A program made the position numbers and the translations under genes. Below the pieces are notes generated by a model, which worked only from the letters and a program-made list of their open reading frames with translations, ran no database searches and was not told the origin of the DNA. 64,000 nt of DNA, taken from Paraspadella gotoi (taxonomy: Eukaryota > Animalia > Chaetognatha). Position 1 is the stretch's first letter. Each line of letters begins with the position of its first letter. Below, piece after piece: positions 8,110 through 64,000 of this stretch. The stretch spans positions 8,102,683 through 8,166,682 of the forward strand of contig CM119267.1 in the NCBI GenBank assembly GCA_051294375.1, in the 5' to 3' direction.

Positions 8110-8173
<64 letters not shown>

Positions 8174-8736
8174 GAACCAGCGTGGTGAAGCGACAAGTAG
8201 AAGCAGAAAATAAGACTTTTTTTTTCCTCCTGAATTTCGACGATTGTTCAGTGAATTCTGGTTGTTATTGAAACTTCTTTCACCGTGAAAATCGCAATTC
8301 TAAAAAAAGAAAGAAAAAAAAACCTCAGGAAAAAAGAAAAGAGAGAATAAGAAATCTCTTTGGGAAAGAACGGAATCAAAACTCTCACATAATTTTGTAT
8401 GTGTATTCAGCGAGCGTGATTGATATTTCAACTTTTTACAGGATGTTTGTTTGATCAATGACGATGCTCTTATGTCTACTCGGGCATAGAAAAAAAGCGC
8501 GAAAGCAACATCGTTAATCTTTGAAGATAAAGATTCGTGTTGACGACGATAGAAAACTGACGACGACGACGAAAACAACGACAACGACGAACGACGACGA
8601 CAGTAAACTCGTTTCTTCGTGAAATCTATGTCGTGAAAGTCACCTGAGTCGAACTCGAGGTTTATCCTCTTCTTGCATCTCTTCAGCGGGGATCCTTTCT
8701 GTTGCCATTCTTTTCTTTTCAGCCTCTCAGCTCTCG

Positions 8737-8804
<68 letters not shown>

Positions 8805-9085
8805 ATCTCTCTCTCTCTCTTCTCTCTCTCTTTTCCTTTCACTTTCTCTCTCTTAATTTCTTTCTCCATTATTCCACCCTTTCCTTTTCTTATTCTAAAA
8901 GCACCTTCGCTTTTTTCTCCCTCTCCTTTTCCTCATTTATTTTTTTACCTCTTCTTTTACTCCTTTCTTTTTCCTCCTTTTTTCCTCGCTTCCTCTTTTC
9001 TTGGCGGTAAATAAAAGTCAAACCTCTTTCGCTCTCTCCAAGGCTTTAAAGAGGCATCTTGCCTTTATTCAGTCTTCGCTCTCAT

Positions 9086-9158
<73 letters not shown>

Positions 9159-12117
9159 CTCTTTCGGCGTTTTTATTTTATTTTCCTTCCGACCGGTAAG
9201 TCTCCTTTTTCCTCTAAGAAAAAAAAGACTTTTCGCGAAACAATTTTGTTCTTTTATCTTTAAGCTTAAAATTTCCTTTTAAGGGAATACATGTGAAAGG
9301 TACAATATCTAGGTACATGTGAAAGGATATGGAAGCGCCTGCATTGATAACTCCTTTACTTTAGTCATTCAATGCATTTTTTTCAATAAACGCTGGCAGG
9401 TACAATGTACATCAACAACGAAAATCATCAAAAAATAATAGTTTACGGACTTTCTATCCAATTCTTCTGATATTCATTTCTTCAGTTATTTCCCCCCTTT
9501 CTGATTCATCCCTCACTTCTCTCTCCCATCTCAATCTCTCTGCCCAGACCCAACCCTTTAATATCTCATCTCTCAGCCCTCTTGACCCAACTCCTTTCAA
9601 TTCTCCGTCCGCTTTTTTGTTTGTCTTTCCTCCAATCCGCCGTTCTTCGCCATCTCCCTCTCTCGGCAAATCCCGAAACAAATTCCTTGGCCATCATTGC
9701 CGATTTCCTTTTATATTTTCGGAGGCTTTCTCCGTTAGAGACGACATTGCATGGATTCCCATTTTTTTTTTCACATCTGTTTTTAGGGGTTGAGCGTCGT
9801 TTTAAGTTTTCTTTTGCTGCCATGATGTCTAGAGAAAACAAAGGGATTGTGAAGTTTCAATGTTTGTTAAAATGTTTTTTATTCTTCACTTAAGAAAACA
9901 ACCGTTATTTTCATTCTTTTTTAAATCGTGTGAGCTAAATAAAAACGAATACGTAATGTTCTATATCAAAAATACCTTTCATTCACACAAAACTTACTTC
10001 CTTTCGGTTCTCTATATTGAGACCCTCTCTTTCCCTCACCTCACACCCCATTCCATTTTTCCCAAAACGCCGCTCCATTGNNNNNNNNNNNNNNNNNNNN
10101 NNNNNGAGAGAGAGAGAGAGAGAGAGAGCGGAACCAGCGGGGTGAAAGCGACACGTAGAAGCAGAAAATAAGACTTTTTTTTCCTCCTGAATTTCGACGA
10201 TTGTTTCAGTGAATTCTGGTTGTGATTGAAACTTCTTTCACCGTGAAAATCGCAATTCTAAAAAAAGAAAGAAAAAAAACCTCAGGAAAAAAGAAAAGAG
10301 AGAATAAGAAATCTCTTTGGGAAAGAACGGAATCAAAACTCTCACATAATTTTGGTGATGTGTATTCAGCGAGCGTGATTGATATTTCCAACTTTTTCAC
10401 AGGATGTTTGTTTGATCAATGACGATGCTCTTATGTCTAACTCGGGCATAGAAAAAAAGCGCGAAGCAACATCGTTAATCTTTGAAGATAAAGATTCGTG
10501 TTGACGACGATAGAAACGACGACGACGACGAAAACAACGACAACGACGAACGACGACGACAGTAAACTCCGTTTCTTCGTGAAATCTATGATCGTGAAAG
10601 TCACCTGAGTCGAACTCGAGGTTTTATCCTCTTCTTGGCATCTCTTCAGCGGGGATCCTTTCTGTTGCCACTTCTTTTCTTTNNNNNNNNNNNNNNNNNN
10701 NNNNNNNNNNNNNNNNNNNNNNNNNNNNNNNNNNNNNNNNNNNNNNNNNNNNNNNNNNNNNNNNNNNNNNNNNNNNNNNNNNNNNNNNNNNNNNNNNNNN
10801 NNNNNNNNNNNNNNNNNNNNNNNNNNNNNNNNNNNNNNNNNNNNNNNNNNNNNNNNNNNNNNNNNNNNNNNNNNNNNNNNNNNNNNNNNNNNNNNNNNNN
10901 NNNNNNNNNCTTTCACTTTCTCTCTCTTAATTTCTTTCTCCATTATTCCACCCCTTTCCTTTTCTTATTCTAAAAGCACCTTTTCGCTTTTTTCTCCCTC
11001 TCCTTTTCCTCATTTATTTTTTCCTCTTCTTTTACTCCTTTCTTTTTCCTCTCTTTTTTCCTCGCTTCCTCTTTTCTTTGGCCGGTAATAAAAGTCAAAC
11101 CTCTTTCGCTCTCTCCAAGGCTTTAAAGAGGCCATCTTGCCTTTATTCAGTCTTCGCTCTTCATCTTTTCTCTCTCTCNNNNNNNNNNNNNNNNNNNNNN
11201 NNNNNNNNNNNNNNNNNNNNNNNNNNNNNNNNNNNNNNNNNNNNNNNNNNNNNNNNNNNNNNNNNNNNNNNNNNNNNNNNNNNNNNNNNNNNNNNNNNNN
11301 NNNNNNNNNNNNNNNNNNNNNNNNNNNNNNNNNNNNNNNNNNNNTCTCCCTTTTTCCCTCTAAGAAAAAAAAGACTTTTCGCGAAACAATTTTGTTCTTT
11401 TATCTTTAAGCTTAAAATTTCCTTTTAAGGGAATACATGTGAAAGGTACAATATCTAGGTACATGTGAAAGGATATGGAAGCGCCTGCATTGATAACTCC
11501 TTTAACTTTTTAGTCATTCAAATGCATTTTTTCAATAAAACGCTGGCAGGTACAATGTACATCAAACAACGAAAATCATCAAAAAATAATAGTTTNNNNN
11601 NNNNNNNNNNNNNNNNNNNNNNNNNNNNNNNNNNNNNNNNNNNNNNNNNNNNNNNNNNNNNNNNNNNNNNNNNNNNNNNNNNNNNNNNNNNNNNNNNNNN
11701 NNNNNNNNNNNNNNNNNNNNNNNNNNNNNNNNNNNNNNNNNNNNNNNNNNNNNNNNNNNNNNNNNNNNNNNNNNNNNNNNNNNNNNNNNNNNNNNNNNNN
11801 NNNNNNNNNNNNNNNNNNNNNNNNNNNNNNNNNNNNNNNNNNNNNNNNNNNNNNNNNNNNNNNNNNNNNNNNNNNNNNNNNNNNNNNNNNNNNNNNNNNN
11901 NNNNNNNNNNNNNNNNNNNNNNNNNNNNNNNNNNNNNNNNNNNNNNNNNNNNNNNNNNNNNNNNNNNNNNNNNNNNNNNNNNNAATACGTAATGTTCTAT
12001 ATTTAGAAATACCTTTCATTCACCAAAAACTTACTTCCTCTCGGTTCTCTTATATTGAGACCCTCTCTTTCCCTCACCTCGCTCCCCATTCCATTTTCCC
12101 AAAACGCCGCTCCATTG
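8110..12117 (+). repeat. ~2-kb tandem duplication across a 25-N gap (likely assembly redundancy)
   Basis: ~8150-10080 is repeated at 10106-12117. The first copy stops at the 25-N gap (10081-10105) and differences are mainly single-base indels. Confidence 0.85.
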
Positions 12118-31035: not shown

Positions 31036-31082
<47 letters not shown>

Positions 31083-31124
31083 TCTCTCTCCTCTCCCTCT
31101 TCTCTCTCTATCTCTCTTCGTTTA

Positions 31125-32935
31125 GCTGTGTGTCGCAAACGAATAAGTATCCGCGTCGACCTCTCTACCTGACCCTGAGTTCTATGGTGAGAAAGATGAT
31201 CAAGAAGAGAATAAAAAAGAAAGAGAAGCGAAAAGAAGATGTGAACGAAGATTAAAAGAACAAAACATTGTAAAAACCCTTTTAAAACCGCATTTGCCTT
31301 AATTTAATGTGACGCCGAAAACGAGGCTCGTATTTTCTGAGTCTAGAAAACGATCAACCGGAAAATCACTCAAAACCTACGGCCGAAAAAAAAAATCGCG
31401 AAGGATGAAAATTCTTTTTAATCCAGTGGACGAAAAAAAAAAAAAAAATAAGACGACTCATTTACTCGACGGCGCTGAAGGGGAGTTGATGTTAAGCAGG
31501 AGAGAACGAAGGGTTTTCTTTAAATTTCTTTCCTTTGGTTAACGACAATTCTGCCTCGCGTGTCTTAGCTTAATTTCAACTTTCTCATTTTCTCAACTTT
31601 AAATATGTAGTGCCATTCAGTTAAAAACCCCGCGAACGAGAAATCATCACCACGACTGGTCCTCTACCCGTCTCTCTCTCGCTCTCTCTCTTTCTTTTCT
31701 CCCTATCTGACTCCCTCTCTCTCGTTTTGAAGCCAGATGTGAAGCGGATATTTTTTGACAGATTTCTTTCCCTTGATGGAATGGAAGTGGGAGAAAGTGC
31801 AATAAATCATGAAAGTAACGACGGCGACGACGACGACGACGACGACGCCGACGATGCCGNNNNNNNNNNNNNNNNNNNNNNNNNTTTTCCCTTTTTTTTT
31901 TGGGGGGGCCGCCCTTTTTTAAATTCCGTCAGGGAGATTAGCTGCGTCAACGTGTCTTCTCATCTCTCTCTCTACTCGCTCTCTCTCTCTCTCTCTCTCT
32001 CGTCTCTCTCTCCTCTCTCTCTCTCTCTCTACTCTATCCTCCTCTTCCTCCATCGCCGGAGAATAAAAACGTAAAAAAAAAAAAAGAAAATTCCCGAGTG
32101 ACTCGCTGAGTCGGGGAGTTGGTGGCAAGGAAGGCGAAACGCCGAAGAGCGCGCATCTGTCGCCGTCGATCGTCGTCGTCGTCGTCGCGTCGTTAACTTT
32201 CATGATTTCATGCGCACTATTCTCCCACTTCCATATCCATCAAGGGAAAGAAAATCTGTCAAAATATCCCGCTTCACATCTGGCTTCAAACGAAGAGAGA
32301 GGGAGTCAGATTAGGGAGAAAAGAAAGAGAGAGAGCTGAGAAGAGAGACCGGGTAGCAAAGGACCAGTCGTGGTGATGATTTCTCGTTCGCGGGTATCTT
32401 ATTGTCTAACTGATGGCATACAATTTAAAGTTGAACGAAAATGAGAAAAGTTGAAAATTCAAGCTAAGACACGCGAGCGCAGAATTTGTCGTTAACCAAA
32501 GAGAAAGAATTTAAAGAAAACCCTTCGTTCTCTCCTGCCTTAAACATCAACCCCCTTCAGCGCCCGTCGAGTAAATATGAGTCGTCTTAAATTTTTTTTT
32601 TTTTTTCGTCCATGGATAAAGAAGAATTTTCATCCTTCGCGATTTTTTTTTTCGGCCGTAGGTTTGAGTGATTATTCCGTTGATCGTTTTAGACTCAGAA
32701 AAAATAACGAGCCTCGTTTTCGGCCGTCAAAATTAAATTAGGAAATGCGGTTTTAAAAGGGTATTTTTACAATGTTTGTTCTTTTTAATCTTCGGTTCAC
32801 ATCTCTTTTCGCTTCTCTTTCATTTTTTATTCTCTTCATTGATCATCTTTCTCACCATAGAACTCAGGGTCAGGTAGAGAGGTCGACGCGGGAATACTGA
32901 TCGGTTTGCGACACAAACAGCTAAGACAGGGAGAC
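31125..32935. repeat. Inverted duplication around the 25-N gap at 31860-31884 (probable mis-oriented contig)
   Basis: ~32150-32930 is the reverse complement of ~31125-31860. The second copy of this locus (43400-43790) joins the 31.8-kb sequence to rc(31885-32200) and then to the 33047 sequence with no inversion. Confidence 0.8.
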
Positions 32936-33046
32936 GAGAGAGGCAGAGGGAGGAGGAGTGAGCAGGAATGCTGAGAGTGCAGAAGCCGGGGGTCAGAGAG
33001 CAAGGAACCAGCAGGAGAGAGAGAGAGGAGGATGAGAGAGATGACC

Positions 33047-50632
<17,586 letters not shown>

Positions 50633-51115
50633 AAGAGAGAGAGTCAACAATTCGCAGCCACATTTTTCTTTTTTTATCCCTCGTGCCATTTTACATTCGA
50701 CTGCTCTCTTCCACTGAATTGGCAATGAGTGGTCGTAGAAAAAGATTTTTCTGTTTCAGAGCGAGGATATCATTAAGCACGAAATGTCACCGGAAACCAT
50801 TTTTTTTTATCGAATCAGACAATTTTCAACGAACTCAACAATATTTTGCGACAAGTCCGTATTATTTCTATTGCCCATCTATTTAATCTCAGTAAATGAT
50901 TAAAATGATAGTATTTAAAAAATATTGTTTTTAATAAAGCTAAGAACATGCCTATATACTACGCATAAAACAAGATATATTCTAAAAATAGAATAAAGAA
51001 ACCGAACACCCGCGTGGCCATCAATAAAACATAAATAGAAAAAATAGATAGTGGTAGGCAAGAATATGGTAATAAAGTAAACTAAATGTATCTATTAACA
51101 GAATTTAAGTAAAGT

Positions 51116-52099: not shown

Positions 52100-52342
52100 G
52101 AAGAAAAGAGAGAGCAAAGACTTTTCAGTTACAAAGAGCATCTCACCCATCCGTAATTTTCGCTTCGTCTCACTCTCAACCAACCCTTCTTGCCTTTGGT
52201 CAAGCATACAAATTACACAATACTCATGGCATTGTGTCCGTTTGTACATATATCATTTTGTGCCGTTGTTTTTTTTTACCAAAAGTTCAGGATCAACGAT
52301 ATCGCGAGAGACATATGGCATGTAGAACATGCGTCAACTCAC

Positions 52343-53363
52343 TTATGCTAAGAACGCATTCCTTTGACAGCTGAACGGCTTTTTCGCTCATCAAACCCCC
52401 TGGCGGAGAAAAGGCGAAGCAGCGAATCTCCGGCGCCGTCGCCCGTCGCTCCGGCGCCTCGTAAAATCTCTTGAGCTTCATGGCAAGAATTGGGGCGACG
52501 CCGCCGCCCAGCGAATGCCCCGTCAGCGTCACGGCGTAGTCCTTTCGATCGCCCGATCGCAGCCTCTCGAGGACGCGATGGCCGACGAGCAACTGGAAGA
52601 TCCTGGCGGCGTTGGTAGCGATGCCGGTGTGGCCCACCAGATCTTCGTCCACGTCGACCTCGTCGGGAAACAACGGGGTCGTCGTCATGACAACGTCGCA
52701 GAGGGCGTCGGCGAAGGAGAGACTCCCACGGACGGCGACGACGATGGACCGAGCGTCGTCGTCGACGGCGACGATGAAAGGCGCCATGTAGATGTCGTTC
52801 GGGAAATGACAGAGAGCGAGACGAACGCCGGGTAGTTCGATCATGGCGCGGAGTCCTGCCACGTCGCAGCTGCAACAGTCCGCGTCGACGACCACTGGCA
52901 AAGAGAGGTCGGTAAAATCCGCCTCCTCCAACGTGGAGCGGCGTTGACCGGCGCAGCAGCAGCCCCGTCGCAGAAGCCTGCAGCCGCCGCAGCAGGGATC
53001 CAGCGCCGTCAATAGAACCGGCCAGTTGTAGCTGGCGATGGCGTATTTAGAGAATCTGGCCACGTTGGCCGGGGTCATCCAAGGGAGAGGAAGGGGGCGG
53101 GTTGTGGATTCTCTCGGAAGGGAGGGTCGTTTCTCTTGCAGATGGTCGAGTTGGCGGCGTCTTTGTTTACTTGCGACGAGGATGAGACCCGCGGCGACGT
53201 CGCTGAAGATGATGTCGTCCTCCACGTCGAACATCTCCGTCATCATGGCGGCGACGTCTCGAAGAGTGCGATCGCTCTCGGCGGAGAAGTCGAGGAAGGA
53301 GCAGCAGACGAGTTGGAGACAAGTCCAGTAGGATTTCGTCCGGTCAATTTCCAACATTATTTC
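52343..53363 (-). CDS. DAGLB: DAGL-like exon 2, lipase class 3 domain with the nucleophile elbow
   Basis: ORF contains SDVAAGLILV, PFIVAVDDDARSIVVAVRGSLSFADALCD, GHTG, TGHSLGGG and CFAFSPPGGLMS. Acceptor ttccag|GAA, donor A|GTGAGT. Confidence 0.93.
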
Positions 53364-53787
53364 CTGGAAAGTTGAGGAACAAGATGATTCACGATTGATG
53401 AGATTTCTCCTGGGTTTTCTAAATTTTTCTTTAAATAATTCCTTGGAGTTACAATACCTCTTTAGATTTTTCTTTCAAAGCATCTTTTTTGTCATTTTAT
53501 CAATATGTAAATACTATATTCTCAATAACTTTTCCGACTTTTTTTTTAGATCGAGAATCAGGCGCCGTTTCCTGGTGTCTTTTTTCTACGTTCCCAAATT
53601 TTGATATTTTGAGAATTTTGGCATGCAGAGCTCGCCAATTATTGGGTCATGCTATGCGTGTATCTGCATTGTGAAATTGATTGTATTAGATTGATAATGT
53701 GATATTGAGAGAGATTGATTGAATAAACTCGGTTTATTTTTTTGGTTAATTCGTTATATGTTGTTGTTGTAGATGTTGTTATCTTAC

Positions 53788-54453
53788 CTTCCCTCTCTCT
53801 CCTCCTTCCCATCATGCTCTCTTCAGCCTCTTCGTCTTCCTCCCTCTCCTCCTCTTCCCCAACGGATCGTAGATACAAGCAACACCACCGGCGTCTGCAT
53901 CGTCAACAGAAAACCAAAGACGACCCGGCTACGCAGACACGCCCACGATTCCCGGACACGCAGATCCCGGCGCTGCGACTCCGGAAACGCCGACGGCTAC
54001 GGCGCCGAAAATGGCGAGGAACAACTCGACGATCACCAGCGCCGCCCGCGTCGCCACGAAGGGGGAGATGCGACGCCGCGCGCCGGGTGCCGTCATGGTT
54101 CCACGCGAGGAAAGGACGGCGATGATGACGGAGTCGATAAGGACGAGCGAATGCAGCGCCACTGACGCCAGGAGAAAGGCGTCGACGAGGCGGTAGGAGG
54201 TGCCGCAGACAAAAGGGGAGGATAAAGACGCAGCGGAGGCGACGGACGTGACGTTGGACGCGTCATTGGAGGAGGAGGTCGAGTCGGTGACGTTGGGCGA
54301 AGGGCGGGAGGCGGAAGCGGAAACGACGGCGGCGTAGGCGGCGGAGACGCCGGCCAACCAGAGAGCGCGAAGGACGATTTCGCAGATGGCGGGAAAAATG
54401 AGGATGTCGGTGGCCAGGCGCCAACGCCGACCGAACAGGCGCGTGCTCGGCAT
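53788..54453 (-). CDS. DAGLB: DAGL-like exon 1, N-terminal transmembrane region
   Basis: MPSTRLFGRRWRLATDILIFPA matches the DAGL N-terminus, followed by SSRGTM...RRRI, hydrophobic helices, and YDPLG in a shifted frame near 53860. Donor GTAAG at 53787. Frameshifts in the 3' part are likely sequencing errors. Confidence 0.85.
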
Positions 54454-54687
54454 TGGTTAGACGTTGTGCAACTGCCGAATATATTAACATTATTTGAGGC
54501 ATTTTGTCCTTAACTCCTTTCAAATATAATTATTGAAAATATTTTTTTAAGAATGGATTATAATTATTATCCTTGACATAAAGAGTGTTTTCCGTAAACT
54601 AACATTTTNNNNNNNNNNNNNNNNNNNNNNNNNTATTATATTTAAAAAGTTACGAAATGTTTAGTTTACGGAAAACACTCTTTATGC

Positions 54688-54955
54688 CAGGATTCTGGTG
54701 GTCTATCACCACAGATGGATTTAAGCTGTTCTTTCACAGCGCGTCAGTGGCTCAGTGGACTAATGCACATCCCATGTGGTTCCCTGTCACCCTGAGGTTG
54801 TCAGTAGAAAGTGGGATGGACCGGCGTAACCCGCCTGTAGGCATGGGCCTACTGCCAGATCCAAAAGCTCTGACTTACAGAACATGCCTGTCCTCGCTGT
54901 CGCCACGAGGTGACACGCTGCGGGTGTGGCCCTGTAAAACCAGCCTCTTCAGGAT
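54688..54955 (+). mobile_element. Short twister-ribozyme-bearing insertion (copy A) with CAGGAT target-site duplication
   Basis: The empty site in the other copy reads (rc of 54560-54585) CTCTTTATGTCAAGGATAATAATT. Here CAGGAT occurs at 54688-54693 and 54950-54955 around 256 bp of GC-richer structured sequence. A-box-like TGGCTCAGTGG at 54748-54758. Confidence 0.85.
54798..54880 (+). ncRNA. Putative twister ribozyme, circularly permuted type P5
   Basis: P5 UUGUCAGU/ACUUACAG; AGAAA; P2 3' GUGG; GAU-GG; closed short P1 region; UAA with predicted scissile U54827|A54828; CCC; GC; P3 GUAGGC/GCCUAC; P4 CAGA/UCUG with loop UCCAAAAGC. There are 1-nt deviations in P2, L4 and the P3-P4 joiner, in a noisy-sequence region. 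Confidence 0.7.
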
Positions 54956-57444
54956 AATAATTATAATCCATTCTTAAAAAAATATTTTCAATAATTAATT
55001 TGAAAGAGTTTAAGCGACAAAATTGCTCAAATAATGTTAATATATTCGGCAGTTGCACAACGTCTAACCATTTGCGAGCACGCGCCTGCTTCGGTCTGGC
55101 GTTGGCGCCTGGCCACCGACATTCCTCATTTTTCCCGCCATCTGCGAAATCGTCCTTCGGCTCTCTGGTTGAGCCGGCGCTCTCCGCCGCCTTACGGAAC
55201 CGCCGTCGTTTCCGCTTCCGCCTCCCGCCCTTCGCCCAACGTCACCGACTCGGACCTCCTCCTCCAATGACGGTCCAACGTCACGTCCGGTTCGCCTCCG
55301 CTGCTCTTTATCCTCCCCTTTTGTCTGCGGCAACCTCCTACCGCCTCGTCGACGCCTTTCTCCTGGCGTCAGTGGCCTGCATTCGCTCGTCCGTTATCGA
55401 CTCGTCATCATCCGCCGTCCGTTCCTCGCGGTGGAACCATGAGGCAACCGCGGCGCCGGGTCGCTCTTCCCCCCTTTCGTGGCGGACGCGGGCGCGCTGG
55501 TGATCTCGAGTTGTTCCCGCCATTCGGCGCCAGTGCCGGTCCGCGTTTCCGGAATCGCAGCGCCGGGTCTGCGTGTTCGGGAATCGTGGGGTGTCTGCGT
55601 TAGCCCCGGGTCGTCTTTGGTTTTCTGTGACGATGCAGACGCCGGTTGGTGTTGCTTGTATGCTACGATTCCGTTGGCGGAAGAGGAAGATGAGGAGGAA
55701 GACGAAGAGGCTGAAGGAGAGCATGATGGGAAGGAGGAGGAGGAGGGAGGTAAGATAACAACATCTACACAACAACAAATAACGAATTAACCAAAAAAAT
55801 AAACCGAGTTATTCAATCAAATCTCTTCACATATCACATTATCAATCTAATACAATCAATTTCACAATCAGATACACGCATTAGGCATTGGACCCAATAA
55901 TTGGCAAGCTGCTCTGCATGCCAAAATTCTCCATATCAAATTTGGGCAAACGTAGAAAAAAGACACAGGGAAACGGCGGCCTGATTCTCGATTCTAAAAA
56001 AAAAGTGCGGAAAAGTTATTGAGAATATAGTATTTAATATGTAAAAATGACAAAAAAGATCTTTTTGAAAAAAAAATCTAAAGAGGTATTGTAACTCCAA
56101 GGAATTATTTAAAAAAATTTAGAAAACCCAGGAGAAATCTCAAATAATCGTGATCATCTTGTTCTCAACTTTCAGGAAATAATGTTGGAAATTGACCTGA
56201 CGAAATCCTTACTGGACTTGTCTCCAACTCGTCTGCTGCCTCTTCCTCGACTTCTCTTTTCATATGATGAAGTAATAGCAAACGAAACTGACAGCTTAAA
56301 AAATTATTTTTGAAACCACTCTGGTCTATCATGCAGGTTCCGAAGAACCAGCACAAATTGAACAAATAAACGAAAGATCTTCACAACAAAATAGCATCGA
56401 AAATTTTGAGAATAATTCCTTTTTTTGTTTATTCAATTATATTGTATTATGGTAAATATTTTTAAAATAGACGAGTTCTAAAGAAAATTTTTTAATAAAC
56501 AACTTGTTCGAGATCGAGCGCAGCTTTTTTTTTATCTCCTTCACGAACCTCACTCTCTCATTGGTCGAATTCTTCGGTCGAAGCAGAAATTGAATTAAGA
56601 AAAAAGAATTTGGGAAAGAAAAGCGAAACTATCAAAACATTCTCGAAAAGTAAAAAAAAAATTTTCTGCTTTTCGACTCTTTAACTTTCCTAATGAGAAT
56701 TAAGCGATAAATATCTGGTTTAGTGAACGGAATAATTCACGAATGTTGCGATTGAAGCATTGTGAGATTCTTTCTCACGCTAGCGATATCGAGTTCGAGT
56801 TTCGCCCGTTTTGGATGTTTTAACGTGAGATTTCCGACAAGTAAATAAAACGACAAGAAATGAGTTTTAATTATTTTTTCTTTATTATGTTGATACGGAA
56901 ACTCGTGAAAACAGAGTTTCCAAGCGGACGAATGAGTTACACGAATATTTTTATGGAACTAAAAAAGATTGGGAAATTTCTCTCGACTTTGAGAAGAAAC
57001 CATCTGAAAATTTAAGGTCAATTGGTCAAATATGAGGCAACATCTTTCACAAGCACGAAAGCATCGGGTAAACAAAAAAATTTTGAACGATCCATCTCTC
57101 TAAAATTATTCATTTAATTTTTTTTTATTACCAAATAGTAAAATATTAAAAAGATAAGACAGTTATTCATTTCATGAGCCCGACGTTTCATAGTCGTCAT
57201 CGGTTTTGTTTATCCGCTTAGTTGCAAATTTTATCTGAGAGGATGAAATTTGCAATTCCTCCCAGTTCATGGATTTGAAAACAAAATGATGTCCAGTGAA
57301 AATTATACGATCTAATTTGTCGATTAGTTTTTTTGTTTTTGTGAGATAACTGTTGTTATAAAAACGAAAACGACCGTCTTAAAAAGAAAATGAAGGGCGA
57401 GGGGAGAATGAGCTAGAGAGACGGAGAGAGAGAGAGAGAGAGAG

Positions 57445-57515
<71 letters not shown>

Positions 57516-58543
57516 ATTTTTCAGAGGAAATTGAAGAAGAGCGGGAAAAATGCGTTTCCCTTCCCGCTGTTGACTTTTCGCTAAGTCCTCTCCTCTGTGA
57601 ATTAGCGGCTGTTCATTTGTTCTTCCAGCCAACGACCTCTGGGTTGAAGGGGAGACGATGGTTTGTAGTCGTGGGAAGAAACGAGGTTGACGAGACTTTG
57701 AAAGGATACTACGATAGGTCCATCGGAGGTAAAGCGATTTAATGGGCGAGAAAGGTTTTTTCTTAGAATTTGACAGATTGAAACTTGCGATTTGATTTGT
57801 GACATGATTTTTAATTTTTAACTTTATTTTCTGTCAGATTTTTTTCGATAATTCAAATTCCGGCTTCGAAATGGAACGAGGAAAGAATTGACAAAACTTG
57901 TGAAACGAGGAAGAGGAGAGAAAAGTTTGTAGCGAAGGGAAGAGAGGGTGAAAAAAAAAGCTAATTGGGATAAGAGATGGTGAAAGGAAAAAAGGGATAT
58001 CTGATATGATAGAGAAATATAACCGGAGAGGGGGTTGGGGGAAAAAAAATCTAAACATAAGACAAGAGAAAGTTAATTAAAAAAAGAGGGAGAAAAGAAA
58101 GAGAGGAGGGGAAAAGGGGAAAGAAAATTTGAGAAGGAGAGAAGGAGAGAAAAAGAAGAAACATTTTTTTTAATTTTAAATAACGAGAGGGAGAGAGAGG
58201 GGGGGGAGAAGGCGAGAAGAAGAGGGGATTTATGAGAGAATAGATGATTTGGAGACAGAGGGCGGGGGGAGAGTCGAAGAAAGGGAAAGACGAGCTTCCA
58301 TCAATATTTGCATGAAGAGATGAAACAATCTATGTACGCGACGACGAGAGGCTGTGGAAAGAGGGCGTGTGTGGTTGAGGGGGAGGGGGGCGCGAAAGAG
58401 AAAACGCAACGAAACCAATTCCACTTTTTATGCGCGTATAAATCGCCTCAAATGAAGCGAGAGAGAAGAGGAAGAAAGGATGAAAAACGCCGGAGGGAGA
58501 TGGGGGGGAGGGAGGGAGGGAGGGAGGAGAGAGGAGAGAGAGA

Positions 58544-58611
<68 letters not shown>

Positions 58612-59001
58612 GAAGAGAGAGAGCGAACGCGAATGAGAGATTGAGTGTAAATTAGTTTTGCAGATTTTTTTTTCCTCCTTTTTTTTTTCCATTCCGCTCA
58701 TAATTTTTTTTTTTTCGAGTGAGTATTGATTATTTCCTTCCTTTTTATAAAAACTGCGCATAAGGTTTACAGTTCATCTCGTGGCGACGTGAGTTTAATA
58801 ACCAATGATTCGCGCCAATCTTACCAAACCTCGCGAAAAAGAAACGTCCTTCGCTTCGTTGGAAAAGAAAAAAAAATAATCGTCACATCGGGCTAAGAGT
58901 GGCGTAAGAAAAAAGAAAAAAAAGAAAAGAGTTAAGATTAAAATCGTTCTAATCGTACATTAATTCGAATGCAAAATATATTAATATATATAGATTATTG
59001 A

Positions 59002-59238
59002 TTAGCTAACTAATTCGGCCTTATCCCCGTCTCCGTCGGACAAGGAGGACATGATGGCCTCGAAATGTCTCTTCCCGTCCAGAAACATCATGTATTCGGC
59101 GTAAGTCTTGGGCATCACTACAGGAACGCGTTCGTCTTGCTGCGTGGAGAAAGTGAAGTAGAAGATGTTGCTCGTTTCTGATTTCGCCTCCGTCGGTTGA
59201 CTCACTTCCGCGTGAACTCTGATCTGCATGTAGGAGTT
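59002..59238 (-). CDS. ACOT9: ACOT9-like exon 6 (last)
   Basis: NSYMQIRVHAEV...TSNIFYFTF...VPVVMPKTYAEYMMFLDGKRHF matches the ACOT9 C-terminus; TAA at 59002-59004. Confidence 0.9.
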   Translation of the reverse strand, partial: NSYMQIRVHAEVSQPTEAKSETSNIFYFTFSTQQDERVPVVMPKTYAEYMMFLDGKRHFEAIMSSLSDGDGDKAELVS

Positions 59239-59517
59239 CTTTTTTTTTTTTTTGGAGGGGGGGGGGAGAATTTAGGAAAGTCAATCTTTCGTAAGGCTCG
59301 GATAAGTTATCAGTTGATAATATTAATATATTATAGTAGAGCATTTTTTATTTTTACTTAGAGACATTGTATTGAGACTTCCTTAGCTTCGATTATAAAT
59401 TTGTCAACAAACGATTTGTTTTTTTATTTGGGGAAAAAAGTACACGTTTCGACTCGTGTTGCGATCCTTCATAGTGAATTTTTACTTAAAAATTGTGAGA
59501 GTTTAAAAAGTAGTTTT

Positions 59518-59665
59518 GCAAACTGATATTGTATATATGTCAGTTGGTTTCTTGTCTTGCCTTGTCTCCTGCCTCTCCAAACTGATACTGTATGTCAGTT
59601 GGTCTTTCGTCTTGTCTTGTCGTGTCTATTCTTGTCCCTAGCCTCTCCAAACTGATATTGTATGA
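59518..59665. repeat. ~60-70-bp tandem repeat (~2.3 copies) in ACOT9 intron 5
   Basis: CAAACTGATAYTGTAT...GTCAGTTGGT...GCCTCTC units, each with an AACTGA/TCAGTT hairpin. Confidence 0.75.
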
Positions 59666-59820
59666 AATTGGTACGACCAATATAAAAATTATCCATTCAT
59701 TTAATAAATAAGCTATTTTACCCCTGACTTTGGACAGGCTTTGGTGGTTTAAGGCCTCCATCACTCTTACTCTTAATGTCGGTTGATCTCTCTTGTCTTA
59801 TCTCTCGCCCAATTCCAAAC

Positions 59821-60009
59821 CTTCGTGAAGACGATGACGCTGGAAAGGAAGAGGAGTGTGCCGATCTCGACGGGACGTTGGAAGACGATGTCGTCGATGG
59901 CGATCATGACCGGAAGCTTCTTCGCGTAGCGGACGGCGTTCGTCCACGCCAGCTCGAAGGCTTGACCCATCAAGTAACCGCCGAATATTTTGTTGTATAG
60001 GTTACGGTT
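59821..60009 (-). CDS. ACOT9: ACOT9-like exon 5
   Basis: NRNLYNKIFGGYLMGQAFELAW...IDDIVFQRPVEIGTLLFLSS is the second hotdog domain. Acceptor ttttcag|, donor |GTTTGG. Confidence 0.93.
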
Positions 60010-60041
60010 CTGAAAAAAAAAAATATTTGTTATTATTCTTC

Positions 60042-60173
60042 TGATTATTACGTTCTTCAGCGGCCATTGGTTCAGGAGGCAAGTCATTCCGGGGTTTTAG
60101 CCTGATGGCCACTTCGCAGTTAAAACGGACGGGGCGCTAAATCTGCCTGTAACATGGTGTTACAGCATGATTA
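60042..60173 (+). mobile_element. Truncated copy (B) of the twister-bearing element, in ACOT9 intron 4 and antisense to the gene
   Basis: GTTCTTCAGCGGCCATTGGTTCAGG aligns with copy A GTTCTTTCACAGCGCGTCAGTGGCTCAG. GGACGGGGCGCTAAATCTGCCTGTAACATGGTGTTACAGC aligns with copy A GGACCGGCGTAACCCGCCTGTAGGCATGGGCCTACTGC. Flanked by TGATTA at 60042-60047 and 60168-60173; P4/L4 missing. Confidence 0.65.
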
Positions 60174-60319
60174 GAAACAAAGGGACTATTTATATTGAAC
60201 GGTTCTGTCACAAACTCATAACAATTATTTCTGTCTTTTCTGTTAAATTTTCTCAGCAGAAATAAAAATCAAGAGCCAAAATTTGGTATTGCTGTGCAAT
60301 TGTATTTGCGATGACTCGC

Positions 60320-60475
60320 TTGTGGATGGTTGATGAGGACGTTTTTGAGCATCGTCGAGTGCATCCAGACAGAATTCTCCGGTTTGTATCGAACGCTGAA
60401 CATCTTCGACTTTTCGTCCATCGTTTCCAGGAACATCGAGTGGATGAGTCGCGATTCTTCGGCCGATGGTGACTC
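60320..60475 (-). CDS. ACOT9: ACOT9-like exon 4
   Basis: ESPSAEESRLIHSMFLETMD...KPENSVWM...LKNVLINHPQ (52 codons); ends at a GC donor, CAA|GCGAGT. Confidence 0.88.
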
Positions 60476-60636
60476 CTTATCCGAGAAATGGAAAAGTAAT
60501 TGCTGTTGGTAAAATTACTGTCATCTTCGTCTTTGCTTTTTTGTATGCGCTCGTATTAAAACAGAGCTTTACTTCCTTCAACGTTAAAAATGACATTTAA
60601 CCGTCCGATTCTTTCGAAACTTTCCATTTGCCTTAC

Positions 60637-60825
60637 CTTGAACAGTGACTTAATTCCCTCTCTATGCCTCAAGATCTGTCGGCGCTCCCCCTCCAAGAAA
60701 ATGAGTTCCTCGTCTTTGCCCTCGGGTCGAAGCGGCGCGACAAAGGCCGACCCTCGGTTGAAGGGATCACGCGCCACCATAAGGAAACGCGCCTCTAGCG
60801 TCGTCTCGAATCTTTGCTTGGATGA
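60637..60825 (-). CDS. ACOT9: ACOT9-like exon 3
   Basis: SSKQRFETTLEARFLMVARDP...SAFVAPL...EGERR...SLFK; cag| acceptor and |GTAAG donor. Confidence 0.9.
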
Positions 60826-60890
60826 CTGTTGATCACAAGGGCGTCATCCCAATCCATCATCCTATTTCGATTCACACTGCGCGGACCTAC

Positions 60891-61063
60891 TTGCTGCTGT
60901 TGCTGCATTTGCATCGTCACTTCCATCGAGGACCGTCCGACCCACGAAACGTAACCGATGATTTTAATGTCCATATCGGAACGAATAGTTCTTCGCTTCA
61001 AGATGATTTCGTCTACCATTGCGGTGACAATCACTAGAGGAGACTTGTAATCATGGACTTCGT
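60891..61063 (-). CDS. ACOT9: ACOT9-like exon 2
   Basis: SPLVIVTAMVDEI...DIKIIGYVSWVGRSSMEV; cacag| acceptor, |GTAGG donor, phase compatible with exon 1. Confidence 0.92.
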
Positions 61064-61676
61064 CTGTGAAGGAGGTTGTGAAATGTGAATGTTATAATGG
61101 TTCTAGAGAAAAGGTTTTATTACAACAACGATAATATTTTACAAATAAAATATACATTTTCGACTTGTTTCTTTTTACGCGGCTGAAGACTTGTGTTGTA
61201 ATAAAAATCGTAACAAAATAAGTTTCTCTAATCGCAAAACACAACGAAAAGAGAGGATACTAAACGATATATTGATTTTGAGGCGACTTACTACCGGTCT
61301 CTCTCTTTAAACCCTTTCTCTCTCCTCTTTCTCCGAGCCGGTCAATCCACAAGGTCCTTTTACCCTAGCTTTGGCAATGAACTTAGATTGACCGGACACA
61401 GTAATAGGGCCGAGGAGACCGTAAGGTCAAGTTGGTCCGGGCGATGATAAAAGTGGATCAGGAGAGAGCTCGTCTTACTCTTTTTCTACTTCTCTTACAT
61501 CGTCACAATTCTCAACTTCTACTTACTTTTATTATTACTATTTTTACCGCCTTCTACAATTTCAAAATTAGTATTAAAAACAAGGAACGGCAGCTAGAAA
61601 TTATAACAGACAATTCAATTAAATCAGTGGATAAGATAATCCACCTAACAACGCGACCCCATACTGCCTTACATAC

Positions 61677-62109
61677 TCATTTTGTTGTGCATGTAAGCGA
61701 CCCAAACGGCGAGCGTGTCCAAATCCTCCAAGATTTTCCCGAATCTCACGGAAAACATAAAGTTGATGTATTTTTCCCTGATTTTCTCGTCGGAGAGTCT
61801 GACCCAGGCCACTTGCAGTCCCTCCCCAAGCGTCTTGTCGTGCATGTCCCCTTGCGACTTGGACAACAGGCCCAAGAGCTTCTCCCGGTTGCCTTGATCT
61901 TCGGCAAAGTTCGTGGCTCCGACGATATCGGCCAAGCGACCCGTCAACTCCGCCATCTCGAAGGAGGGCGCGTTGGGCGGCGGAGAGAGAATGGGCGTGG
62001 CCTTGCGAGCTGGCGGTTCGTAGGGCGGAGGCTTGGAGCACAGCGTCCGGGCAAAGTCTTGGGCTACGTGTTTAGGAAGGAACGCGCGTGAAAAGATTCT
62101 CGTGGTCAT
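61677..62109 (-). CDS. ACOT9: ACOT9-like acyl-CoA thioesterase exon 1 with probable mitochondrial presequence
   Basis: Arg/Ser/Thr-rich N-terminus MTTRIFSRAFLPK, then REKYINFMFSVRFGKILEDLDTLAVWVAYMH, the ACOT9 hallmark RFGxILEDLD. Donor A|GTATGT. Confidence 0.92.
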
Positions 62110-62464
62110 TTTCGAAAATTAAGACGGATTCTTTTTTTTTTCGTAATGGGCGGTTCATTGAATATCGACTCGTATTAAGATCCTAATTTAGAACGTCATT
62201 ACTTAACCAATTACCAAAGTAAAATAAGTTAATTAACTAAAAAAAAATGCTAAAATATAGATTCGATTGATAATAAAAAGCTGTGGCCAATACACCTTTA
62301 CCGACGTAGAAGTTTCCGGCTGCAGATAACGACGACCCCCTGTCGATCCCTGCCACAGTTTTTTCGAAGCGGCGAAAACGGCCACGTCGAAAAAAAGCGA
62401 TTCGGGGGAAGAGACTGCATTTTATTGGGTTTTAAAAACCCAGAATTGGTCGCTCCTTTTTAAT

Positions 62465-62721
62465 TCTTTATGGTAACAGCCGGGTTGCCTGTGATGCCCA
62501 TTGGGGTGGGGCGTCTCACTGTTGACTTCGGAGGCTTCCGACCCTCAGTGACGCCTCCAGTCACTGGCGCGGTTACCCTTCGACGGTCTCGCTTTGCCAA
62601 CGCAGAGGGAAGTCGTTACGACTGTGGATGGAACACTACGCCTGGGATGGTGTGTTACCCCTCTGAGCCAATAGATTTGGATGTAGGACGTGAGGCGGTG
62701 TGAATATACCGCCACGTCTTT
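62465..62721 (-). mobile_element. Short twister-ribozyme-bearing element (copy C), divergent family member
   Basis: GC-rich island in AT-rich DNA. On the minus strand: a 5' hairpin, then A-box-like TGGCTCAGAGG-GGTAACACACCATCCCA (copy A has TGGCTCAGTGG-ACTAATGCACATCCCA), then the twister. Possible TCTTT TSD at 62465-62469 and 62717-62721 (weak, low complexity). Confidence 0.7.
62521..62601 (-). ncRNA. Putative twister ribozyme, circularly permuted type P5
   Basis: Minus strand reads GUUGGC-AAA-GCGA-GAC-CG-UCGAAGGG-UAA-CCGC-GC-CA-GUGAC(UGGAGGC)GUCAC-UG-AGGG-UCGGAAGC-CUCC-GAA-GUCAAC. This gives P5 GUUGGC/GUCAAC, P2 GCGA/CCGC (3/4), P1 hairpin UC-GAAG-GG, P3, and P4 (3/4) with an 8-nt L4. The T1 pairing CCG/CGG is intact. 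Predicted cut U62575|A62574. Confidence 0.8.
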
Positions 62722-64000
62722 TCGTTATTTGCTATTTTTAATTTTTTTTATAGTTTACAATAGCAATGATTTGTTCGTTGTGTTTGGATTCCGTTAGAGC
62801 ATTAGTTTAATTAGCAGTTATTGACTTCGTTGTTAAATGTCATCACCGCCATAATAATGTATTTTTTTAATTGTTATCTTAACATCTCTCCCCTTTTATT
62901 TTTCCCCGAATGATTGTCCCCGTTCCGTTATCTTCGTTTTATTTGTTTGCATCATGAATAACCAATGACAACAAACGTATTCGTGCGTCGTGCATCGTGA
63001 CAAAGTTGCATCTTTATCTCCAAGTTAACTTCGTCATAGTAGTTTGAAAGTACACTACCTGCAGCCACTCGGATGCCACATCTCTCCCTAGACAAAATAC
63101 CAATCGTATGAAGGCCGTGACGCTGCGTCACGGATCTCAATAATAGCGCCGCCTCAAAGATATAAGGGATGCAGCAACCTCACGTATGTAATTGGACAAA
63201 CGGCGTTCGAGATCCCCGTCATCCTGAGACGGTCGCCGCGTGAAATCGACAAACGCCTTTTCATTTTCCCCGACGTCGATAAAAAACGTCGTAAACGAGT
63301 ATTTTATGGCGCGAGATTCGATAAAATGAAATAAATAAAAAGAGAAAACTGTAAACGAGCGACGTTCTTTCTTCTTTGTCCATCGTCCTCGTCAGCCCGT
63401 AATTACGCGCCATGTTAATTCCTTTCGATCGGAAATTATTAAATTTATGCATGGCCGTGTTAATCTTTTTCGCCAAGAAACGCCGTTGGCTTTTCTCTCT
63501 TTCTGCTTTTCTTTTTTCTGTTTTTTTTTTCTTATCACCTCTTTCCTTTTTTTTTCCTTTGCCTCCCTTTCAAGACGCCCGAACTCGCTCTGTGAAAAGA
63601 GATTAAGATTAATTTTTGTCTCCTCGTTTTGTTCTCGTTTCTCGATTCTTTTAATACGGAATGTCATATCAGAGACCGGGAGAAAAAGTATTTGTTGGTT
63701 CATGTCTACTCCCCGCCGTGTTTCCGTTTATTTGTAAAGAAAGGGAAAATATGTGCATTGTGCGCGTGCAACTATTCTGTAGAACGCCACTTCAAGCATC
63801 CAATTATCAATCGACTGCGTGCGGCCTCCTAAAACGATTTTCAAACCAGACGCGAATCGAGAGCGCGCGTACATTTTTAATTCAACGATCAACTTATGAA
63901 AAGAGCCAATCAACTGCTTTTCTTTTTTCATTTCGCTTTTTTTTTCTCTCTAATTTTTTTTCCGGCTTATCTACTTGATATTCTGTCTCCCTCCTTAGCT

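Follow-up and report, generated by a model that had tools for sequence, protein, structure and literature searches.

Four short repeats, A to D, in a 64,000-nucleotide stretch of the Paraspadella gotoi genome (contig CM119267.1 of GenBank assembly GCA_051294375.1, positions 8,102,683 to 8,166,682 of the forward strand; the whole stretch is referred to as the window) were found to be copies of abundant, dispersed, non-coding repeat families with fixed 3' ends. We conclude that they are very probably mobile repeats that carry a putative twister ribozyme of type P5, joined in A, B and C to a tRNA-like head. The probability that they are retroposons moved as a multimer or circle by a Penelope-like enzyme, as the twister counterpart of the SM-alpha and retrozyme elements, is put at about 0.5. 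An earlier note, made from the sequence alone, had proposed a non-autonomous mobile family with a P5 twister in the middle of the monomer and an RNA polymerase III (Pol III)-type head; dispersal, an empty insertion site, covarying pseudoknots and B boxes bear this out, but the permuted or tandem form for which it proposed a search has so far not been found to be the rule. The note had listed three copies, and a fourth, D (59770-59661, minus strand), was found with the Rfam Twister-P5 model. The elements and their parts, in window positions, are as follows.

54694..54951, plus strand: element A, full length (258 bp), with 5' hairpin, tRNA-like head, P5-type twister (predicted) and structured 3' domain; family boundaries from loose ends and depth
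54688..54693, plus strand: left target-site duplication of A; from the empty site in the other arm and contigs joining 54686 to 54951
54950-54955, plus strand: right target-site duplication of A (4-6 bp); its first two letters are the family's last two
54695..54723, plus strand: 5' terminal hairpin of A, from folds
54741..54798, plus strand: tRNA-like head of A, with acceptor-type stem 54741-47/54792-98 and A box from 54748
~54768-74 and ~54785-91, plus strand: anticodon-like loop and B-box position of A; the B box is degenerate in this copy and canonical in a family variant
54808..54872, plus strand: putative twister core of A, with P2 54812-14/54830-32, GA 54815-16 and T1 54817-19/54861-63
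54820-26, plus strand: palindromic linker of A, with the predicted cut at 54827/54828
54833-34/54867-68, 54837-42/54847-52 and 54856-59/54869-72, plus strand: T2, P3 (read from sequence) and P4 of A
60051..60240, plus strand: element B, 5'-truncated and decayed, co-linear with A; 19-nt deletion after 60089
60061-67/60105-11, 60068, 60138/60139 and 60147-53/60159-65, plus strand: acceptor-type stem, start of the A box, predicted cut and P3 of B
60167 and 60180, plus strand: positions where family-majority bases restore P4 of B; L4 degenerate
62468..62715, minus strand: element C, full length (248 bp), with 5' hairpin, anticodon-like and T-arm-like hairpins; A box from 62670
~62595-62530, minus strand: putative twister of C, with the predicted cut at 62575/62574
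62717..62721, minus strand: upstream 5-bp direct repeat of C, with a downstream copy at 62469-62465; the last two family letters are its first two
59661..59770, minus strand: element D, 5'-truncated, with a putative minimal, P3-less twister (Rfam Twister-P5 match); the head is not in this copy
59751/59750, minus strand: predicted cut of D, next to a linker that is a 6-nt perfect palindrome (59757-59752); fixed 3' end at 59661

The evidence at the level of families came from assembled contigs of four public runs, which carry the same species label and belong to three studies; the best of them may be the source of the window itself. One run, X9, was guessed to be RNA, as it contains a spliced contig of the neighbouring host gene, and its contigs give neither strand, ends nor level. 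The window is a draft assembly with N gaps and AG microsatellites. In another run, X1, contigs leave the element at one fixed 3' base and enter unrelated flanks in 350 cases for D (59661), 108 for B (60240), 87 for C (62468) and 6 for A (54951), and the same exit points recur in the other runs where these were listed. Summed contig depth in X1, which cannot be used as a copy number since overlapping contigs are added together, was ~80-100 on unique flanks and peaked at 2.2e5 over A, 2.6e5 over B, 1.3e6 over C and 2.2e6 over D, or ~2,600 times the unique flanks for A and B, 14,000 times for C and 23,000 times for D. Each of the four families is represented among the contigs of X9, and many of these contigs have long flanks. 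No further copies of A to D were detected in the window by blastn or nhmmer; the additional genomic copies that the earlier note had proposed to look for are found in the public contigs, where the families are abundant and dispersed.

Family boundaries gave lengths of 258 bp (A) and 248 bp (C), in line with the ~250-260 bp proposed. The end of B had been placed at 60173, with a duplication at 60168-60173; the family runs on to 60240, where the 108 contigs exit, so that the supposed duplication is internal. The description as GC-rich islands suits A (55%) and C (57%), and B (43%) less so. A poly(A) or microsatellite tail is absent from all four copies, whose 3' ends differ from one another, and no T4 run occurs inside A or C.

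An insertion event can be reconstructed for A. The element is contained in only one of the two arms of an inverted duplication (1.3 kb, 91% identity); the other arm lacks it and carries the target once. Contigs in three of the four runs have the empty form, joining 54686 to 54951, which was the sole form over the left junction of A in X1 and X3. The direct repeat around A is thus a target duplication, as had been supposed, of 4-6 bp, the family's last two letters matching the target. At C, too, the last 2 nt of the family overlap the direct repeat, which is 5 bp long here and is likely to be a target duplication as well; no empty site was seen for C, and the case is weaker than for A. In both elements the overlap at the 3' end would fit target-primed reverse transcription. 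No clear target duplication was found for B or D. The arms of the inverted duplication (53284-54607 and 54655-56256, with an N gap between them) include the 5' part of a lipase gene; they may represent two haplotypes that were joined head to head in scaffolding, and A would then be a polymorphic insertion. A miniature inverted-repeat transposable element or Helitron was considered and rejected, as terminal inverted repeats are lacking and a duplication is present; a solo long terminal repeat (LTR) with TG...CA termini is not supported, such termini being absent.

The families are related. A and B are co-linear homologues over ~160 nt (score 45, reached in 0/200 shuffles), A and C share the head, C and D share the core (p ~0.01 each), and some contigs join D-type and C-type parts. 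Contigs of the A family end at the 5' hairpin and not in common upstream sequence, and the B family continues upstream into the same short hairpin. Most copies are monomers with fixed ends, and tandem arrays or permuted start points are so far not supported as the usual form: head-to-tail joints were listed for D only, at low depth, in 1-5 contigs per run, and the assembly contigs gave no sign of permuted start points. No circle junction was listed among the contigs of the probable RNA run, X9.

Several features of the surroundings were recorded. Four or five repeats (A to D, and a further one, E) are packed into 8 kb, and the remaining 56 kb contain none of these families. A spliced host gene (59024-62141, minus strand; exons joined in an X9 contig), which has a weak OB-fold match, has B, D and E in its introns, and C lies just upstream of it. 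Three or four imperfect tandem units of 40-70 bp (59500-59665) adjoin the 3' end of D.

Twister-like cores were recognized at four places in the window: in A, C and D, where the anatomy is complete, and in B, where it is decayed. Base pairs were counted by coordinate in each copy, without a covariance model, because MAFFT cannot register the diverged cores. For A and C, the count confirmed a complete core in type-P5 order, with the scissile U^A at the predicted positions (54827/54828 and 62575/62574). The pseudoknot T1 (3 bp) is Watson-Crick at 3/3 pairs in A, C and D and is changed on both sides, reading UGG/CCA in A and D versus CCG/CGG in C. T2 (2 bp) has 2/2 Watson-Crick pairs in the same copies and is likewise changed on both sides, from GC/GC in A and C to AC/GU in D. 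Both pseudoknots are broken in the B copy. P2 and P4 in the P5 strand order are present in A, C and D, and in B only when family-majority bases are used. P4 forms 4/4 pairs in A, 3/4 in C and 4/4 in D, with sequences that differ between copies, while P2 forms 2/3, 3/4 and 2/3 pairs, respectively, with a single terminal mismatch in each. A, B and C have a P3 of 6-7 bp, the sequence of which differs from copy to copy, and D has none; P5 twisters are described as able to lack it (PMC5408937). The GA and UAA motifs, with the conserved catalytic G and the A of the cleavage site, are present in all four copies, and the L4 motif U..AA-G(C/U) in A, C and D, B being without it. Family-majority bases mend the damaged stems, namely P4 of C (62532) and P4 of B, and correct the L4 length of A, where the window copy has an extra A at 54866.

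D is the only copy that matches the Rfam Twister-P5 model (RF02684): the match (59765-59723, minus strand) scored 25.8 bits with E 0.044 in E-value mode over 54300-63000, which is below the gathering cut-off of 37.6 bits, so that the significant twister score asked for by the earlier note was not obtained for any copy. B gave no Rfam twister match. A strict descriptor, made by adding T2 pairing, an upstream AA and a conserved C to a loose one and tightened after the hits had been seen, had 3 matches in the window (A, C and D) and 2 in 200 block-shuffled windows. The z-scores of whole-element folds were -2.6 for A, 0.7 for B, -0.7 for C and 0.5 for D, of which only that of A is remarkable, and circular folds were no stabler than linear ones (-93.3 versus -98.7 kcal/mol for A, -73.8 versus -79.0 kcal/mol for C). 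A type-P5 twister fold is predicted for A, C and D, and with it self-cleavage at U^A.

Other ribozyme readings were tried and set aside. A weak antisense match to CPEB3/hepatitis delta virus ribozymes in the 3' domain of A (12.8 bits, E 1.1) has U at the position of the catalytic C and an unpaired P2. The CTGA...GAAA letters in A and B, judged by eye as a hammerhead, offer no NUH site with a helix III; Rfam scans gave no hammerhead match, and no dedicated minimal-hammerhead descriptor was run. Matches to the scan pattern in metagenome contigs (4 loci) and in viral contigs (6 loci) lack the stems by eye, and all 10 were taken as chance.

The ordinary P1 hairpin that had been assumed is missing from A, B, D and the majority of the C family. 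From the T1 strand to the scissile U, these have a loop-less linker of only 5-8 nt without a fold of its own; the window copy of C forms a weak 3-pair hairpin at the linker in nested folds. Each linker has a different self-complementary core, CCGG in A, GCGC in B, AGGCCU in D and UCGA in the C copy, and the C family majority reads CCUAGG through two changes at 62580-81. A palindromic 4-mer is thus present in 4/4 linkers, with a background per random linker of 0.14-0.24; as the families are related, this count is suggestive and does not amount to a formal test. When two copies of D were folded together, the linkers were joined with both P4 stems intact, at -28.1 versus 2 x -8.2 kcal/mol. In every copy a different palindrome stands in the place of P1, and this suggests that two copies may pair with each other, as in the hammerheads of Penelope-like elements (PLEs), which have a palindromic short loop and are described as cleaving as dimers (PMC6765202).

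The 5' hairpin of A and C, and the A-box-like motif behind it (54748; 62670), had both been reported from the sequence and are confirmed. An A box is also present in B. In a variant of the A family a canonical B box follows a CCC-centred loop (loose ends behind 54768), and at the place where 19 nt are missing from the window copy of B, its family keeps an anticodon-like loop and a near-canonical B box (loose ends behind 60089). As B is 5'-truncated and carries this deletion, its CATYCC is not the homologue of those in A and C that it had been taken for. The acceptor-type stem has 6/7 pairs in A, or 7/7 with the majority base at 54743, and 6/7 in B, where its sequence is unrelated to that of A. 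ARAGORN (0 genes) and the Rfam tRNA model did not call the decayed copies tRNA. Judging from these boxes and stems, the head of A, B and C, which presumably resembles tRNA-Gly(CCC), is likely to be a Pol III promoter of tRNA type. The A box lies 54 nt (A) and 45 nt (C) from the element's 5' end, behind the hairpin that also begins the B family. Type-2 Pol III promoters start transcription ~10-20 nt before the A box, and a single copy would therefore not transcribe its own 5' hairpin.

The cycle that we favour would set out from rare master copies, arranged head to tail and transcribed from their tRNA-type promoter. Two twisters in the transcript would cut it, probably aided by palindromes pairing into an intermolecular P1, and the unit-length RNA freed in this way would probably be ligated into a circle. 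Insertion would be the work of a Penelope-like (possibly Naiad) reverse transcriptase-endonuclease: beginning at a fixed position close to the 3' tail, and with a microhomology of ~2 nt to a nicked target, the enzyme would copy a single unit and halt when it reaches the 5' hairpin; the outcome would be fixed-end monomers with duplications of 4-6 bp. The monomers would mostly be dead ends, because a promoter 45-54 nt inside cannot transcribe the 5' hairpin. Two features speak for a template that is multimeric or circular: the internal promoter, and the P5 ribozyme in mid-element, the open P5 arm of which the remainder of the unit would close if it were in a circle or tandem. Parallels exist for several of these steps. 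The hammerhead SINE-like (short interspersed element-like) repeats of Schistosoma have a Pol III promoter, and their single copies are described as unable to propagate, tandems being the source (PMC6765202). PLE-derived retrozymes leave dispersed monomer offspring, with monomer fractions from 0 to 1 (10.64898/2026.07.22.740005). For a PLE enzyme, the start of reverse transcription has been placed at fixed sites within the RNA (PMC11167929), which would account for fixed 3' ends arising from a circle.

A number of results weigh against this cycle or against the ribozyme on which it depends. Head-to-tail joints of A were found in none of the four runs, all 3 listed joints being skips, and among the best 15 of 152 joints of B, C and D, which also gave the counts for D, none of B or C was head-to-tail; short-read contigs collapse tandems. 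No reverse transcriptase or endonuclease Pfam domain was found in 63/63 window open reading frames (ORFs) scanned, the 64th being the lipase, and the window thus offers no partner element; the same scan agrees with the earlier claim that the repeats have no coding function. When A, B or C was folded with a second copy of itself, the linkers were not paired between copies and other pairings formed instead. P1 is described as conserved but dispensable for twister cleavage (PMC5408937), so that dependence on a dimer may be unnecessary and monomers might cut too. At the gathering score, Rfam gave 0 matches over the 64 kb, and A and C, searched alone, gave no twister match even at E 10, which may be due to their P3, long in both, at a place for which the model provides a short linker. 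The loose descriptor had 3 matches in the window and a mean of 3.2 in 30 shuffles, which is not significant. P4 of A is closed by A-U, where G-C is described as essentially invariant (PMC5408937). The twister stems are not favoured in whole-monomer folds, which were made with nested programs unable to represent pseudoknots; in A, these folds contain a 7-bp helix between the anticodon-like loop (54768-54774) and the 5' strand of the ribozyme (54812-54818) with a probability of 0.95. Finally, a PLE that was tested inserts without the need of hammerhead cleavage, uncut RNA being its main template (PMC11167929). The anticodon-like loop of A shows exact complementarity to the ribozyme strand of P2/G/A/T1, which may be an off state built into the element and is not conserved in C.

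The main rival is a plain SINE copied from uncut RNA: the families would be ordinary tRNA-derived SINEs moved by a long interspersed element (LINE), monomer RNA would be the template, and the twister would be mostly off and serve as a brake or travel as a passenger. We consider this unlikely, although much of the evidence suits it. The elements are short, high-copy and dispersed, with A and B boxes in a tRNA-like head, fixed-end monomers, 3' microhomology and, in A, a short target duplication; tandems are rare, A and C contain no T4 run, and the 0.95-probability helix in A could hold the ribozyme off. That helix is missing from C, however. Furthermore, the A box, which in a SINE is close to the 5' end so that the whole element is transcribed, lies 45-54 nt inside that end in A and C, a poly(A) or microsatellite tail is lacking and the four 3' ends are all different. 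Covarying pseudoknots in four diverged families also imply selection for an active fold. The repeats could alternatively be no family in their own right, but solo pseudo-LTRs or 3' stubs of autonomous Naiad or Penelope-like elements, or else solo LTRs left by an LTR element that is small, non-autonomous and equipped with an internal Pol III promoter. Most PLE insertions are 5'-truncated (10.64898/2026.07.22.740005; PMC8557442), as are B and D, and an internal promoter follows an LTR-like logic; on the other hand, contigs of the A family stop at the 5' hairpin, upstream sequence of the B family is that same short hairpin, TG...CA termini are lacking, the duplication length is not fixed and the window holds no reverse transcriptase/GIY-YIG ORF. 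We consider such an origin quite improbable.

A case that the earlier note had named as refuting its reading, that the islands are 5' fragments of long LINEs, here taken as LINEs of RTE type with the twister trimming the 5' end, has a precedent, in that twister variants head the RTE element Perere-3 (PMC8501958) and RTE twisters in general have been reported as unpublished (PMC7761336). It is largely refuted by the hundreds of contigs in which a fixed 3' end is followed by unrelated flanks; moreover, the predicted cut is in mid-element and not beside the duplication as in Perere-3, and a ribozyme in P5 order would lose its half upstream of the cut. Only a very small chance is left to it. Slighter still is the likelihood that GC-rich hairpins in old repeats have come to resemble a twister by chance, a view in which the missing gathering match, the loose descriptor that did not exceed chance and the strict one that was tuned afterwards find their place. 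The order and spacing of the parts are the same in four diverged families, both pseudoknots are changed on two sides, the Rfam match on D is independent, and the strict descriptor gave only 2 matches in 200 shuffles.

Compared with known systems, the repeats would work like SM-alpha or retrozyme elements, yet by the hammerhead that defines these they belong to neither, their predicted ribozyme being a P5 twister without P1. With SM-alpha and Sj-alpha of Schistosoma they share a short non-coding unit, a Pol III-type promoter and an embedded self-cleaving ribozyme, here predicted; those repeats carry a hammerhead and are often in tandem (PMC6765202), whereas the families of A to D have a P5-type twister core and are mostly dispersed fixed-end monomers with a 5' hairpin. 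Metazoan non-LTR retrozymes also have a non-coding unit of 150-450 bp with a ribozyme inside (PMC7229834; 10.64898/2026.07.22.740005), leave dispersed monomer offspring and are proposed to be mobilised by PLEs, and some of them act as dimers through a palindrome (10.64898/2026.07.22.740005). They differ in having type I hammerheads in tandem repeats, a GC content below 50% and demonstrated circles (PMC7229834; 10.64898/2026.07.22.740005), in contrast to the predicted twister, tRNA-like head, GC content of 55-57% in A and C, and few tandems observed here. Strand order, P2, P4, optional P3, T1, T2, GA/UAA and L4 are common to the published type-P5 twister (RF02684; PMC5408937) and to A, C and D; the loop-less palindrome in place of the P1 hairpin, scores below the Rfam cut-off and the A-U pair closing P4 in A are not.

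Hammerheads in the pseudo-LTRs of PLEs have a palindrome replacing a weak stem, a fixed 3' start of reverse transcription and frequent 5' truncation, as is the case or proposed here (PMC8557442; PMC11167929). No ORF is attached to the repeats in the window, and a tRNA-type head is not described for pseudo-LTRs in the accessible parts of these papers. The Naiad clade is described as lacking hammerheads, which leaves room for another ribozyme, and Naiads prefer (TA)n targets, of which none was seen at the four sites here (PMC8557442). The twister T-variants of Perere-3 head an autonomous RTE LINE at its 5' end and cut next to the duplication (PMC8501958). In contrast, the predicted twister here is in the middle of a 250-bp non-coding unit: the predicted cut lies 134 nt (A) and 141 nt (C) inside the element, and the fixed 3' ends are ~90-125 nt further on.

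A description of a twister in a SINE, a retrozyme or a Naiad was not found in full-text literature searches, as judged from titles, the opening of abstracts and selected passages, in a collection with few subscription papers or repeat databases, nor was the pairing of a twister with a tRNA-like promoter in one retroposon found in print. The retroelement twisters that were found are at the 5' ends of RTE elements (PMC8501958; PMC7761336), and a search for further twister permutations is reported to have found none (PMC10085705). A preprint of 2026 names twister in its reference list alone. The small ribozyme retroposons of animals that the search did find, SM-alpha, non-LTR retrozymes and PLE pseudo-LTRs, all use hammerheads. 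Were a twister to lie in the middle of a tRNA-headed unit in four or more abundant, diverged families of a single genome, it would be evident that the design of a circle-making retroposon does not depend on the class of ribozyme, and that a second ribozyme has come to replace a stem by a palindrome. This would also give a testable handle on RNA processing by hammerhead-less Naiad elements and their satellites. A bolder view, which we regard as tentative and on the whole doubtful, is that the families belong to a Pol III-driven superfamily of twister retrozymes, tRNA-headed parasites of Naiad-type PLEs that are cleaved efficiently only when the palindromic P1 pairs two units. If this is true, the palindrome would be a copy-counting switch, by which tandem transcripts make replicating circles and single copies stay uncut, and nature would contain a twister that depends on a dimer, as well as a retrozyme that is not built on a hammerhead; neither was found in print.

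The fifth high-copy repeat, E (~61284-61531; summed depth ~1e5 in X1), is not homologous to A to D. Its minus strand folds into one long hairpin, in which an 11-bp stem is followed by UAA, another stem and a loop containing AAAGC, with a fold z-score of ~-2.1 to -2.4; it faintly resembles a P1-type twister but is without the GA/T1 motif. Elsewhere in the window, large diverged direct or inverted duplications (80-96% identity) pair 33045-36674 with 42472-46337 and 37243-40083 with 47982-50642, and further ones lie at 31081-32965 and 8149-12117, with no recognisable coding domains in any of them. The stretch 52296-53474 (minus strand) encodes an intronless, divergent diacylglycerol lipase beta (Lipase_3), ~30% identical to its counterparts in other animals and indicative of a divergent metazoan host, with ~26-39% identity to 81 matches.

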